DNA from: a virus
Taxonomy: Duplodnaviria; Caudoviricetes
Strand: one strand, 5' to 3'
Length of the DNA stretch: 64,000 nt
Virus record (IMG/VR): IMGVR_UViG_3300021255_000050
Location: 51,380 to 115,379 of that record
The position numbers and the translations under genes are program-made. Below are positions 20,356 to 51,427 of this stretch, in pieces. The notes under the pieces were generated by a model that ran no database searches, was not told where the DNA came from, and saw nothing but the letters and a program-made list of their open reading frames with translations. Position 1 is the stretch's first letter, and every line of letters begins with the position of its first letter.

Positions 20356-23300
20356 TTACCAGCTAAGTCTTGTAGTTGCGATGCCTTGACCTGAGATCTG
20401 CTTTACAAATTCCTGGCCGACCTTCTCGGCGAGTTCCTGAAGATCGAGGTTGTCATTCAGTTGGTTCGTGCTTACGTGAATGTCGCCGACGGTAACGGTT
20501 GGCTTACCTGTCAGCATATCGGAGCGGAACGCGGTCGAGAACATGGGGACGCTCACGCGAGAGAACGCGCTGATCATCTTGCGCATGTCAGCCATAACGC
20601 CGCTGTCGAGCAAGCCACGAATCATTTCGCGGTCATCGCTGTTAAGGAAAGCTTCGGGCTTGGACTTAGTGCCGTCAACCCATGCCGGGCCGGTGTAATC
20701 TACGAGGCCGCCACTCTTGTATTCTGAAACATTGATCTTGTTCTTTAATGCTTGCGCATAACCATGTACCATTCTTACTGTTGTTGCTACATCACCATAT
20801 CGCTGTGGGTTTGCATTAACAAAAGACGCGGCCAATTCATCCAGCATAGCTTCGGCAGCCGCTCTTGCTTCTTTTTCCGTTCGGAAACCTTGAAGGGTTC
20901 GTCCCTGGAATCCATGCGCCGTTTCCCATCCAGCTTGATATCTCTTTATTGTTGCAATTTTCTCGTCGCTGTTAGCATTTTTGTTTGCACCACTGTTGGT
21001 ATTGCCACCGGTGTTGCCGCCGCCATTACCGCCACCGCTGCCATCGCCGCCGTTGTAATTAGCAAAGTTCTCGTCGCTGTGGAAATATGTAGCCATATCT
21101 TGCATTGCTGCAATCCATGCATCATATGAACCAGAGCCGGCATCTACATCGAGCCACTGATAAAGAAGTTGCTTACGCTTGTCGTCACTGGCTGTCTGGT
21201 ATTCATCGGAGGCCATCATATAAGCTGCGAAGGATTCTCTGTCACCGAGTATGTTATGCACTTCATCCCAGTAGGTATCAAGAATGTGCAGCATCTGCTT
21301 ATAGGTATCGGTCCAACTCTGAACCATTTGTGTTTGTGCATCTTCAATACTGTAAGTGTATTCCTTTACATTTTTCTTCAGCCAATCAAAAAGCTCTGTC
21401 TGGTTAAGCTTCATAACTCCATTAACCTCTTCGGCAAAGTTATTAGCATCACGCAGCAAGCGCTCCAGATCTTCGTCACCATATGTTACGTACTGATCGT
21501 AAGCTTCGATCTCGTCGTCCATGCTCTTCTTCTGTGCTTCTACTTGTTCTTCTGCGATCTTCCAGCCGCGCTCTTCCTGCAGATCATCGATCTTCTTCTG
21601 CAGCTCCTTCACATCTTTCGTGCGGGTGCTGTCCATGCTGATAAGAGCAAGCTGCCTCTGGTATTCAGCAAGCTCTTCGGCCTTCTTGGCTTCGTTACTT
21701 GCGTCCTTCCTGCGCTGGAGTTCTTCGTCAATATACTGTTTCTTCTTTTCGAGAGCTTCCTTCTCTTTTTCAACGCCCTTCTTAATGAGCAATATGTTGG
21801 CGCAGCAGGTTGTCATCCTTGCGCCGTTATACAGTGCACTTAAATATACTGCCAGTGGAAACCGCCGGCGGTTTTGCGCAGACCACAAGCAGCTCGCCGA
21901 ACCATCTCTTTTCCGGGGAGACTTTGCGTGGCCGCTTTTGCGCTGGGATAAATAACACCGGTCTCAACACACAAGACCGGTTTCGAATTTATTTCTGCTA
22001 GCTTTTGCTTTGTTTCCTCTGAGTGGTGGAACCCTGTTTTTACTGCACTCATCTTCTTTCGGTACTCCTCTGTATGCATTGCGTTAACGATCTTCTGATG
22101 CACCTCTGGTTCCGCAAGTATCTGGCGCCGAAGCTCGATGTACTCCGGGTGTTCTTCAATGTATCGGTGCAAGCTTTCGATCCGGCGAGCTGTTACTTCG
22201 GGCGAAACCTCGCGACCACCTTCACCGCCGGCTGTCATGTTGTAGCCGTACTCCGGGTTGTTCGAATGGTAAGCTGCGATGAACCGTTGCTCTTCGCTGT
22301 TGAGCGAATCAATGCTGCAGGGTTCGAGGAGGAAAGCATCGAAAGCTTCGGGACCATACTTATTATATGCGTACTGCAGATGAGTGTTAGGGTGGGAACC
22401 GCGCTTTAGTTTACTCATGTGTTCTTTCAATCTCCTATCTACGTTTTTGGACTGGCCAATATAACACTTATTATTTACCATGTTTCGAATCATGTAGATA
22501 CCACTTTGAATGCAACCACCTGCCTTAGGTGGCACTGTATAACCCTCACACTTTCATGCGAGTTCAGACTATATCTTGTGTGCGCAGCAAAGCGCAGCAC
22601 ACCAACCGCTTCGGCAGCAATGACGGGGCGCTGCCTACTCCATATAGGATAGTCGTTGAACCTTCTTCTCAGCGGGCTTTGCAAAGTCTTATGAGAAGCT
22701 TGGCTGCTGATTGCCCGTGTACATCCGCGCCATTTTCGAGCATTCGCGTTTGCTCTCGCGAGCTGCGCTGTAGCTGGCGGGCTTTGGGGTGTTCCAGCAA
22801 TTCGATTGGTAGGGACCGTATAATCCCATTCGTCTTGGTAGCGTTGTTTAATCGCGTCGAGAACCGTCGTTTCCATTTGGACGCGAGCATCGAGCATGTC
22901 GCGCTGGATCTGGATGCGGTTCCGAATTTCCTGATCAACGAGGTCTTCGAGATCAGTATGCGTTTTGAGGATAGCTTGCTCGTTCTGTTTCATCTTCTTG
23001 GTGTTCGCGTCAATTGTATTGTTAGTTTCGTCTAACTGCTCTTCGTACTGCAGCACTTGCTCGTAAAGTTTTTGCCAGTCGTCGGAACCACGCTCTGTCG
23101 CGGCAAGCTGCTCGCGAAGCTTCGTGATCGCGTCGGCGAGGACCACGCTCTTCTCGCGCTGCAGCTCGTTCTCGTACTCGATCATATTGTTGACGTTGCC
23201 GAGCTGGCCGAGCTGTTCGTACTTGGTTTCCTGGAGTTGGGTCATCTTGATGCGGTGATCGGCAAGAGTAATTTTGTTCTTGAGGTTTTGGAGAAGCTTG

Positions 23301-38331: not shown

Positions 38332-38807
38332 ACTTGTTCCTCCATCTCGTCAATCTTGTTCAAGCGGCAGAAGATGTCGAGCAAGTTGTAAATATCTGCA
38401 GAGGTCATGTTGTCGAAGTGCTTCTTCGTAAAGGCTGCATCATCAACAACACAGGTTACCCAGTCCATGAGGCACTTTGTAGGCGTACGCTTTTCGTCAA
38501 AGTAATCATCAGGAAGCTGGAAGATGTAGGGAAGCGGCATGCTTTTCAGCACCCTGTAAAAACCAGCAACACCATTACGCTGGTAGAACATGCGCGTTGC
38601 TTTTATCTCTATAGTAACGCCGTCACATGTGAACATATTTTGCATGTTCTCAGCCGGCGGGATTGGCTTGCTGGATATTTCTTCTGAAGGCTGCGGTTCC
38701 GAAATCACTTCTTCTTTCGGGAGATCGCTGGCTTCAATATCTTCATCAGGCAGTGTACCGGGGTTCGGCACCTTTTCTGTGGGAAGCTTCTTCGGCATAA
38801 TCATCAT
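38295..38807 (-). CDS. tail assembly chaperone (gpG-like)
   Basis: Between MTP and TMP; ends ..VKN on a slippery site. Confidence 0.78.
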   Translation of the reverse strand: MMIMPKKLPTEKVPNPGTLPDEDIEASDLPKEEVISEPQPSEEISSKPIPPAENMQNMFTCDGVTIEIKATRMFYQRNGVAGFYRVLKSMPLPYIFQLPDDYFDEKRTPTKCLMDWVTCVVDDAAFTKKHFDNMTSADIYNLLDIFCRLNKIDEMEEQVKNRMATAATMG

Positions 38808-38818
38808 CTCTTCTTTTT

Positions 38819-38850
38819 AAAAAAGGGCTGCCAGTGTTAGTAGCAGCCCT
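38819..38850 (-). terminator. rho-independent terminator after MTP exon 3b
   Basis: AGGGCTGC...GCAGCCCT followed by a T run. Confidence 0.75.
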
Positions 38851-38855
38851 ATAAG

Positions 38856-39010
38856 TTAGCTTGAATATTTGTCCGTATCGTAGTTGGACTCGTCGTACTT
38901 GGATTGCTGTCCGTACCCCTTGCTTACAATGCCAACCTGCCAAGCGATGTTGTCATCGCCGCCGGGGTCCATTGTAGACAGGGTGAGCGGAAATGTAGCT
39001 GCTGATTTGT
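38856..39010 (-). CDS. major tail protein alternative terminal exon 3b
   Basis: (Y)KSAATFPLTLSTMDPGGDDNIAWQVGIVSKGYGQQSKYDESNYDTDKYSS*; paralog of exon 3a, same phase, preceded by an intron-like 3' end. Confidence 0.75.
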
Positions 39011-39050
39011 CATTTACATTCAGCATAGATCGCTACACTATGCTCGCGCT
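39011..39050 (-). ncRNA. duplicate group I intron 3' module (P9.2-like hairpin plus terminal G)
   Basis: AGCGCG-AGCATAG-TGTAGCGAT-CTATGCT-GAATGTAAATG has the same layout as the 3' ends of both MTP introns. Confidence 0.75.
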
Positions 39051-40391
39051 TTAGGACGACTTCTTCTTGGGATTGTCGATGATGCCAACCTGCCATGCAA
39101 TAGCATCGTCATCGCCACGGTCCATCGTGGAGAGAGTCAGCGGGAAGGTAGCAGCAGACTTATCATATGTATTCACCGCAGTTCGCTGGGCTGCAGTCGC
39201 GCCTTAAGCACTGCTCTATGTCGCCATAGAGATTAGACCATATCTTCATCTCAAGTTGAGAGGCTACCGTTTCGACCACCAATCGCTTGTGGCCTACTCC
39301 CATATGGGATGGTCGTTAGAGTCTATGCGTATAACGCACTTGCTACGGGATTGTCTCGTAGAGAGTTTCCCCGTTTAGGTAGCTTTTGCATGCAGCTCAC
39401 GCTGCAAGGAACCTATTGTTTGCTAAGCTCGTGTCAACAGTGTGTGTTCAGCATGGTTCGCAACACCATGCCCGCTTTTCAGCTGCTGCATATCACTATG
39501 CAGATCGGACTATATCTTCATCCATTTTCATGGAGCTTCCCATTTCGAACGCCATATGCTTGCGTCCTACGCCGTAAGGCTAGTCTCTAGGCTTTTTGCA
39601 TACTCTTTTCAGGTATGCATTTAGCACGGTAGGTTGTCTTACGCTGCCGTAAGAGTTTCCCCGTTTAAGGAAGTGTCAGTATGCATTGCTGCATAAAGGA
39701 CCTTGACAAATGTAAAGCCAGGAAGAGTGGTCACGCGGGTCTTGAAGATACGAACCACAGCATACTTGATGATGCCGCTTTCTTCGCACTTCTTACCGTC
39801 GTTGTAGATAGGCCACTTAAGGATAACTTCGCCGCAAGCCACGTCCCTGTTGTTGATGTTAACAACATTGGCAGTGGAATCTGCAGTCTCGTAGAAGATC
39901 TCCATCTCGTCGGTTTCATCATCAGAGAACAGGACCGTCTTTGCTTCGGTATCAACATAGTAATAACCGGACGCAACAGGAGTGCCAGAAGCCTGTTCCT
40001 TCAGACCATTGATATACACGGTGCCAGCGGCCGGCTTATAGGTCAGGGTAACCTTGTGGGTAGTGGCATCGGGAGTAAGAGACTCGCTGACAGGAACCAG
40101 GAAATTGGGATCGTTCACGAAATCAGCAGCATTCGCGGCAGCAAAGATTTCGGGCATGAAATCGCCCAGAGTGATCTGGATGTCCATGGTGGACTGGCCA
40201 GGGATGTTAGCAGAAGCATAAGCGGACCACCCAGAGCGAACCTCAATGAAGTCCACCTGAGGATTCAGGGAGCACTGCGTAACATGCTTGCTTGTAAAGA
40301 CTTTCTTGTCGCCACCGCGCCTAAAGTAGAACTGCGGAACGTCGACAATGTAGCCGCCAAACTGTGGTACATATTTGGTTGCCATAAGCAT
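39051..40391 (-). CDS. major tail (tube) protein, spliced: 40391-39716, 39437-39426, 39163-39051 (266 aa; 280 aa with exon 3b)
   Basis: Joined reading ...RVTTLPG-F-DTS-Y-KSAATFPLTLSTMD; position between tail terminator and TAC. Confidence 0.85.
39164..39425 (-). ncRNA. group I intron 2 of MTP (262 nt, no ORF)
   Basis: P1 GAGCU/GGUUC; P3 GCTACC/GGTAGC; P4 AAACGGGGAA with AATCCCGT; P7 GACCA/TGGTC in GAAGATATGGTCT; terminal G at 39164. Confidence 0.9.
39438..39715 (-). ncRNA. group I intron 1 of MTP (278 nt, no ORF)
   Basis: P1 GGCU/GGUC; perfect P10 UGUCAA/UUGACA; P3 CTTCC/GGAAG; P7 GACTA/TAGTC in GAAGATATAGTCC; terminal G at 39438. Confidence 0.92.
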
Positions 40392-40445
40392 TCACGTTCT
40401 TTCAATTGTATTTATGATAGCTCGTCCCTCACACGAGTTACATAC

Positions 40446-40940
40446 TTAATAAACTCTCGTGAAAGTCATCGTGAGGCAGTGGCGTTCGTACCCTATGGTC
40501 CGTGTGCCAAGCACCGTTTCATGCGGATCACGAAACTTAAACACACCGATGTACCCGTAGTTCTCATCGCGCGGCTTAATGTAAAGCAGCTCAAGGAACC
40601 TGCGAGCAATACGCTGTGTTCGTGCGACAAGGCGGTCCTTGCCAACAGTGTGCATCTTCTCAGTCGGACAATAGATGTCGAGGCTGAGTGTCATGTTATG
40701 AGCATTTGGGATGTCTGTGCTGTCAGCTGGATAAAAACCATAGACGACGCGAATGTCCTCGTTGGTGAGAAGCTCGGACGTGGTCTTGCCAGCCTGCACA
40801 AAGTAGCGGTTCACAAATTCAAGGATGCTGGTTTTCGGGGCAACCCCCATCAGCTCCTTCAGCTCTGTATCGGGAAAGATGACGTCACGAATAATGTCGA
40901 GCCAGTCATCGTCCCAGGCGGTGTACAGCATTCTCACCAC
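40446..40940 (-). CDS. tail terminator/completion protein
   Basis: Immediately upstream of MTP; size and D.ELKELM / DIYCP pattern. Confidence 0.6.
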   Translation of the reverse strand: MVRMLYTAWDDDWLDIIRDVIFPDTELKELMGVAPKTSILEFVNRYFVQAGKTTSELLTNEDIRVVYGFYPADSTDIPNAHNMTLSLDIYCPTEKMHTVGKDRLVARTQRIARRFLELLYIKPRDENYGYIGVFKFRDPHETVLGTRTIGYERHCLTMTFTRVY

Positions 40941-51124: not shown

Positions 51125-51427
51125 ATGAAATACCTTTTTGATGTTGATATTCCGCTCCGGCAGGGTAACGCGTTCCTTACCGGAACCATCAAGAATCTTG
51201 GTGGTATTAAGGCCATCGATGTCAAGATGGAACTGACCGTCGGCAGCAAGGTAGCAACGCTCACAGCTCCTTGCTGTGCGATTGGAGATGACATGTGCGA
51301 TTCAATCGCATCCGCAATTGAAGGTTTTGTAGCCTTTTGCGGTTTCGATTGGGACCGCACGCCCGAAAGGCAGCAGCTCCATAAAAGCATTCTGGAGTTT
51401 GCTGAGTCCTATCGGGAAAATGATTAG
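51125..51427 (+). CDS. hypothetical early protein
   Basis: AAGGAGG SD. Confidence 0.7.
   Translation: MKYLFDVDIPLRQGNAFLTGTIKNLGGIKAIDVKMELTVGSKVATLTAPCCAIGDDMCDSIASAIEGFVAFCGFDWDRTPERQQLHKSILEFAESYREND

Follow-up and report, generated by a model that had tools for sequence, protein, structure and literature searches.

Alternative splicing by self-splicing introns is rare, and C.te.I1, a group II intron in the surface-layer locus of Clostridium tetani, is one bacterial case with alternative last exons. Four spliced mRNAs were shown for this intron, and the authors state that the mechanism of selection was not addressed (PMC3919590). Here, we describe group I intron 2 of a split tail-tube gene, encoded on the minus strand of a 64,000-nt stretch of a Caudoviricetes virus (positions 51,380 to 115,379 of IMG/VR record IMGVR_UViG_3300021255_000050; hereafter, the window). 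The window comes from a 115-kb phage contig carrying portal, terminase, capsid-like, and tape-measure genes. In intron 2, one catalytic core appears to serve two interchangeable peripheral modules on its 3′ side, with a last exon (3a or 3b) behind each. We lean toward the reading that exons 3a and 3b are alternatively spliced via competing helices, in which a long-range P9.1 helix is the route to exon 3b and one of two opposed weights, not the sole setter of the ratio.

C.te.I1 is the closest known system. As in that intron, a single ribozyme core without an open reading frame (ORF) is followed by repeated 3′ intron modules, each of which precedes an alternative last exon. The repeats of C.te.I1 are the catalytic parts D5/D6 of a group II intron, whereas those described here are peripheral parts of a group I intron (P9.1 strand, P9.2, P9.0 strand, and terminal G). 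In addition, the exons are paralogous here and the candidate selecting helices are explicit. The orf142 gene of phage Twort is a tail tube gene with three group I introns (PMC10136302, PMC11878797), and natural exon skipping by group I introns has so far received no mechanistic analysis (PMC10136302). The two loci share a phage tail-tube gene, introns of subgroup IA2, a micro-exon, and alternative products that are, or here would be, generated by ribozymes. In orf142, unlike in the present gene, an internal exon is skipped between two complete introns, and neither a duplicated 3′ module nor an alternative last exon has been described.

In group I introns of the T4 sunY type, a homing-endonuclease ORF is looped out of P9.1. 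In both settings, closing P9.1 over a long range brings a remote 3′ end to the core; those introns have a single fold, whereas in intron 2 a host exon is looped out, and this exon brings a splice site that competes. P9-domain insertions in group I introns have been described, and IStrons have an IA2 architecture with P7.1, P7.2, P9.0–P9.2, and a GAAY motif after P9.2 (PMC4227781). Intron 2 shares the architecture and the motif, but no insertion sequence cargo lies between P9.2 and the splice site in either module and the U·G pair at the 5′ site is canonical. An IStron identity was rejected because merely 11 nt separate P9.2 from the exon in both modules. The tube protein gp17.1 of phage SPP1 and its frameshift-extended form are two tube subunits in a 3:1 ratio, the extension being an FN3 domain (PMC8718954). 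There, too, one gene gives two tail-tube subunits with different C-termini, by ribosomal frameshifting, whereas splicing here would swap the last two strands and yield a tail that is 14 residues longer. Literature searches, for which older subscription papers were mostly outside reach, retrieved no group I intron with duplicated 3′ modules. A protein-free choice of the last exon was thus found described for group II introns and not for group I.

Split tail-tube gene and its predicted spliced forms

The split gene belongs to the YomU-like or SPbeta-like tail-tube genes. Its relatives carry PF27173 (YomU_Tube) in precomputed annotation; a local Pfam search gave no match. The structure model of the full-length relative P0172 matches solved tail tubes of the siphovirus fold (best match 8xkn, E 2e-13), and in this model the final two strands of the tube fold are encoded by the last exon. 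Rfam places two introns in the gene, both of the group I family RF00028 (gathering score 50), and no group II D5/D6 was found at these introns. The splice junctions were fixed by comparison with the intronless relative P0005. The parts of the gene are as follows.

39716–40385, minus strand: exon 1 of the tube gene, ending in phase 1 of the Phe codon of PGF (from P0005 and P1 pairing)
39438–39715, minus strand: group I intron 1, 278 nt, without an ORF (Rfam, 68 bits; ends from the intronless relative)
39426–39437, minus strand: exon 2, 12 nt, encoding F-D-T-S and restoring PGFDTSYKS as in intronless relatives
39164–39425, minus strand: group I intron 2, 262 nt to the proximal 3′ splice site, or 415 nt to the distal site at 39011 (Rfam, 53.1 bits)
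39430–39424/39415–39409, minus strand: P1 of intron 2, with U·G at 39426/39413
39051–39163, minus strand: exon 3a, the short ending, giving a 264-aa tube; stop codon 39053–39051 (relative L013 has the same junction)
38856–39010, minus strand: exon 3b, the long ending, giving a 278-aa tube whose extension has conserved Tyr, Gln, and Asp (from junction and constraint comparison)
38824–38850, minus strand: terminator-like site after exon 3b, the sole such site on this strand within 38700–40600

The group I hallmarks are present in intron 2, namely the U39426·G39413 pair of P1 and a terminal G at 39164 and again at 39011, and both exits give the intronless reading, PGFDTSYKS, in proteins of 264 or 278 residues. 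The intron also has the P7.1 and P7.2 hairpins and the extended domain 9 with P9.0, P9.1, and P9.2 that characterize subgroup IA2. Splice sites at the AAY triplets directly 3′ of P9.2 were rejected because they do not reproduce the intronless sequence. Ribosomes on unspliced RNA would halt early in each intron (stop codons at 39641–39639 in intron 1 and at about 39397 in intron 2) and would not reach the P9.1 region; therefore, translational control of P9.1 is unlikely. Skipping of exon 2 would keep the frame, and both modules of intron 2 fit the L7.2 core pairs of intron 1; Twort-like exon skipping is possible at this exon.

An exact exon 2–exon 3a junction is present in L013, a 956-nt contig from sequencing run SRR18336214 (RNA or DNA), in which 700–956 hold this junction together with the retained distal module; the start of exon 3b is retained as well. 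The closest protein relative, which differs from L013 at 3 of 194 positions, is truncated by an upstream intron that is likewise missing from L013, and a 3a peptide called on its own corresponds to the last 44 residues in L013. This contig is probably a fully spliced 3a mRNA, although a precise intron loss in DNA is conceivable. The 3a-type junction of L013 is the sole spliced junction seen.

Alternative closures of P9.1 and a predicted masking helix

The initial annotation had proposed that one segment of intron 2 folds either as a weak local hairpin or with a strand at the end of exon 3a, and that these two mutually exclusive folds set the 3a:3b ratio. The elements concerned are listed here.

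39195–39211, minus strand: P9.1 5′ strand, the shared switch strand, including the local hairpin 39211–39199 (pairing analysis)
39046–39061, minus strand: distal P9.1 strand, the long-range partner, comprising the last three 3a codons, the stop codon, and 5 nt (15-bp pairing)
39164–39198, minus strand: proximal 3′ module, with P9.2 39197–39175, P9.0 strand 39174–39170, and terminal G 39164 (sequence and structure comparison)
39011–39045, minus strand: distal 3′ module, with P9.2 39044–39022, loop bases 39034–39031, P9.0 strand 39021–39017, and terminal G 39011 (comparison)
39284–39287, minus strand: L7.2 bases able to kiss L9.2 of either module (compensatory C-G to U-A in other family introns)
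39231–39235, minus strand: J7/9, partner of the P9.0-like strand of either module (A-U/G-C covariation, 14 modules)
38992–39039, minus strand: predicted masking helix, 39039–39032/38999–38992, 39025–39020/39005–39000, and 39018–39016/39010–39008 (prediction and synonymous-codon null)

The local hairpin is present, with 5 bp (39211–39207/39203–39199), a 3-nt loop, and −4.9 kcal/mol. On the minus strand, 39211–39202 pairs with 39055–39046 at nine of ten positions, as had been claimed, with a lone A·A mismatch at 39205/39052. The helix is longer than first described: it has 15 bp with one mismatch and one bulge (39211–39206/39051–39046, 39204–39202/39055–39053, and 39200–39195/39061–39056), pair probabilities of 0.88–1.0, and a duplex energy of −21.0 kcal/mol. 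It spans the exon 3a stop codon and the start of the duplicate 3′ module, and it loops out the proximal splice site (39164/39163). The original statement that all of exon 3a is looped out does not hold, since its last ~11 nt sit in the helix. The long-range helix consumes the 3′ strand of the local hairpin and three bases of the proximal P9.2; thus, the proximal module is excluded and the mutual exclusivity of the two folds stands. The distal hairpin and G are delivered to the core as an intact module, 35 nt from the splice site, just as in the proximal case.

Both modules carry P9.2, the L9.2 loop bases, the P9.0 strand, and an in-frame terminal G. Over 14 modules, P9.2 is 100% paired, with double changes at 7/7 pairs and 0/500 shuffles reaching it on four of five measures. 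The L7.2–L9.2 kiss and the pairing of J7/9 with the motif that follows P9.2 show covariation within the intron family, and every distal module retains them. In the window, the kiss (39287–39284 with 39187–39184 or 39034–39031) consists of two Watson–Crick pairs flanked by A·G pairs, and its compensatory change is found in L014, L029, and another intron of this genome.

A plain self-copy of the hairpin already pairs at −16.9 to −18.5 kcal/mol; therefore, duplication by itself supplies the core of the long-range pairing. The duplex reaches its full strength through the extension into the last three 3a codons (p~0.016 versus synonymous recoding), and removing this extension in silico lowers the probability of the long-range helix from 0.999 to 0.04. 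The local hairpin has a predicted probability of 0.35–0.64 as long as the distal strand has not been transcribed.

The analogy drawn at the outset with homing-endonuclease ORFs looped out of P9.1 has an example in the same window. In the tape-measure intron (minus strand, 21790–22545), P9.1 is closed by 11 perfect base pairs (22542–22532/21837–21827), and its loop holds a 231-aa GIY-YIG ORF (22535–21840) with a stop codon just before the distal strand. This intron family therefore uses long-range closure in this genome. The P9.1 loop of intron 2 holds tube exon 3a and no endonuclease ORF.

Folding a longer region, which reaches into exon 3b, predicts that the distal module pairs with the first ~20 nt of this exon, displacing the distal P9.2 and burying the distal splice site. 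Opening this masking helix costs 8.6 kcal/mol in the window versus 0.8 kcal/mol for synonymous recodings (0/300), and 10.7 kcal/mol in L008 (p 0.01). The masking duplex has −16 to −19 kcal/mol before all five long exons versus −7 to −12 kcal/mol before seven other exons, a comparison among related lineages whose p values are therefore overstated. In the window, p is 0.0005 against synonymous recoding. In L004 and L014, a stronger distal P9.2 beats the masking helix. Once the mask is taken into account, the two splicing-competent states differ in energy (B–A) by +0.3 kcal/mol in the window and +2.0, +1.9, +4.9, −2.5, and −4.0 kcal/mol in the others, values that shift by 2–5 kcal/mol with the choice of the folded-region ends. 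In silico, the window gap becomes +6.6 kcal/mol with the extension off, −5.7 kcal/mol with the mask off, and +0.8 kcal/mol with both off. The extension and the mask are thus predicted to cancel in the window, leaving two near-isoenergetic splicing-competent folds. A preference of 5 kcal/mol for the long-range fold was rejected, as the region folded in that case ended before the masking helix. The folding suggests a balance of three helices in which the mask is as large an energy term as the long-range P9.1, and the idea that the two P9.1 folds by themselves set the ratio is not upheld.

Relatives with repeated last exons

Four lineages have repeated last exons at the same intron site: window/L012, L004/L014/L015, L008, and L001/L011. 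Three of them have two 3′ modules, each before an in-frame last exon, and L001/L011 has three exons. No further two-exon loci were found in IMG/VR, GTDB genomes, or GenBank phages. The initial annotation had staked its switch on conservation in relatives that keep both exons. At the level of the locus, the distal strand keeps its pairing with the P9.1 5′ strand in 4/4 lineages, nearly always overlapping the upstream stop codon, and the proximal/distal spacing to the splice site is almost constant (35/35 nt in window/L012, 35/34 nt in L004/L014/L015, 35/35 nt in L008, and 37/36 nt in L001/L011). Synonymous sites of the long exon differ by 50–96% between lineages, so the noncoding distal strand has survived deep divergence, and its four noncoding bases after the stop codon stay complementary in all lineages. 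The feature is real and conserved. Single-exon relatives (L018 and L029) have an ordinary 8-bp local P9.1 at this place. We rejected as a firm claim that the local P9.1 is weak by adaptation, because P9.1 has 3–4 bp in other single-exit introns too.

The long exon has a ratio of nonsynonymous to synonymous change (pN/pS) of mostly 0.34–0.53 and invariant residues in the extension, showing that purifying selection acts on exon 3b. In the comparison of L001 with L011, the changes in the exon to which the long-range helix extends over 330 nt are all synonymous (3, versus 0 nonsynonymous), and those in the two bypassed exons are all nonsynonymous (5, versus 0 synonymous; p 0.018; p 0.004 versus exon 1; small numbers). 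This pattern agrees with the predicted fold preference in that lineage.

The middle (long) one of the three last exons of this lineage (L001:4070–4310 and L011:1250–1480) has a degenerate module, whose G-rich strand pairs about as well with the start of its own exon (−17.8) as with that of the first exon (−16.4), a possible strand-swap switch. The window (38850–39730) and L012 (720–1620) have near-identical cassettes, with 2 differences in 900 nt, and exon 1 proteins that are 57% identical; therefore, the 3′ cassette was recently exchanged. At L004:1590–1600, exon 3a is shorter than in L013 owing to a 2-nt deletion, which also shifts the stop codon off the distal strand and is either a strain variant or an assembly error. 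The tube gene is an intron hotspot (L014:2570–4150 and L029:7000–10270), with sites at WP, PGF (two, one base apart), DTS, and others. GIY-YIG endonucleases are carried by some of these introns, and many database tube proteins are truncated read-throughs; in many relatives, the protein ends after DTS. Three further group I intron signatures lie beyond the window on the plus strand of genome C1 (19077, 26172, and 50732).

Proposed mechanism and alternative explanations

Here, we propose a mechanism for the choice between the two exits. When the P9.1 5′ strand folds locally, the proximal module would dock and exon 3a would be used. When it pairs 150 nt downstream, exon 3a and the base of the proximal P9.2 would be removed and exon 3b used, a choice that the masking helix would oppose. 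The local hairpin may form first during transcription, giving exon 3a a head start. Molecules that are still unspliced may then switch to the long-range helix, and exon 3b would be used if the distal P9.2 docks before the mask forms. Tertiary docking (L7.2–L9.2, P9.0, and the G pocket) may rescue one of the two active folds. Tube subunits of 264 aa and 278 aa, differing in their C-terminal arm, would result in a more or less constant proportion, with the 3a form probably the more abundant. The helix noted in the initial annotation is probably the route to exon 3b.

Several points weigh against this mechanism, and some of them favor other explanations. Nine-of-ten matches to the 10-mer occur 105 times on the 64-kb minus strand, and the match count was rejected as evidence in itself. 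The region after the 3a stop codon might be a duplicate in the course of decay, with a pairing that arose by chance or persists neutrally, which is very improbable: matches are common at ~1 per 600 nt, but the position of the pairing at the start of the duplicated module, the equal core-to-splice-site spacing, and the conservation in relatives are not features of chance, and the covarying distal P9.2 and the open, constrained exon 3b in four lineages largely refute this explanation. The distal loop sequence is a common variant in the intron family, the comparison spans four related lineages only, and the extension beyond the core is significant in the window alone (p 0.20–0.28 in other lineages). 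The first five pairs of the long-range helix hardly vary among lineages. The suggested covariation check thus succeeded for P9.2 and not for the long-range helix itself, where lineage-specific covariation was rejected as nonsignificant (cognate strand pairs rank 3rd of 24 permutations). It is conceivable, although rather unlikely, that both exons are spliced while the two modules compete directly for the core (P9.0, L7.2–L9.2, and terminal G), with the long-range P9.1 as a passive by-product of duplication that has little effect on the ratio. The missing covariation speaks for this, as do the self-copy duplex, which pairs as strongly as the distal strands of relatives and more strongly in 3/4 lineages, and the long exon of L001/L011, which lacks a P9.1 strand and is nevertheless kept, with a J7/9-complementary strand in L001. 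Direct competition does not explain why the four bases after the stop codon stay complementary despite near-saturated synonymous divergence, why selection in L001/L011 tracks the exon having the P9.1 strand, or why the extension in the window removes the base of the proximal P9.2.

The two remaining explanations deny that the helices tune a ratio or that the long-range helix leads to exon 3b. Each phage might use one exon and hold the other as a silent reserve, kept off by the mask or the long-range helix and activated by mutation or DNA recombination, so that the helices fix the choice. A profile search for full-length proteins ending in the 3b tail, a weak test, gave no protein with an exon 2–exon 3b junction, and the 3a junction alone was seen (L013). 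Two of three exons look relaxed in L001/L011, exon 3a of L004 has its deletion, and the 3′ cassette moves by recombination, as in window/L012. We still regard a silent reserve as quite unlikely, given that neither the long nor the short exon has lost its reading frame across lineages, with pN/pS <1 and conservation of the long exon's extension, and that both modules retain all structural contacts. Constrained folding, the check suggested at the outset, supported the long-range helix, but with exon 3b included, the long-range P9.1 and the mask form together in the lowest predicted fold, and neither splice site is presented there. In the window, the two active states are 7.1 and 7.4 kcal/mol above the free ensemble, in energies from ViennaRNA, which ignores the pseudoknotted core and leaves tertiary contacts outside; L008 also masks its distal site. 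Together with the mask, the long-range helix could accordingly be mainly inhibitory, delaying or gating the full-length tube until a factor or condition refolds the RNA, and unspliced RNA would give a truncated protein, as the last exon supplies two strands of the fold. Such a gate is improbable for a major structural protein needed in bulk; the trap is absent in L004/L014, where the active state A lies within 0.1 kcal/mol, and tertiary energy is outside the model. Alternative 3a/3b splicing through competing helices remains the reading that we favor.

The P0172 model fold also matches entries titled SPR and DSR2-SPR (8ygm and 8ygc). The phage SPR tube protein activates the DSR2 defense system, and, speculatively, tube isoforms might matter for host defense. 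Standard annotation overlooks exons 3a and 3b. The locus is shorter than 500 nt and requires no known protein, which makes the choice of a ribozyme between 3′ splice sites directly testable; the candidate helices are named, and most can be mutated by synonymous changes. More tentatively, as a possibility toward which we do not yet lean, a domesticated group I intron may serve here as a protein-free alternative-splicing device, in which two opposed helices, partly in synonymous codons, set the ratio of tube subunits. Lineages would retune it by point changes or a third exon; transcription speed or temperature may influence the ratio, or the ratio may alter how host defense views the tube. If true, what began as a selfish intron would now diversify virion proteins, adding a third route to those of frameshifting and DNA inversion, and the locus would offer a compact natural part for RNA-only isoform control.
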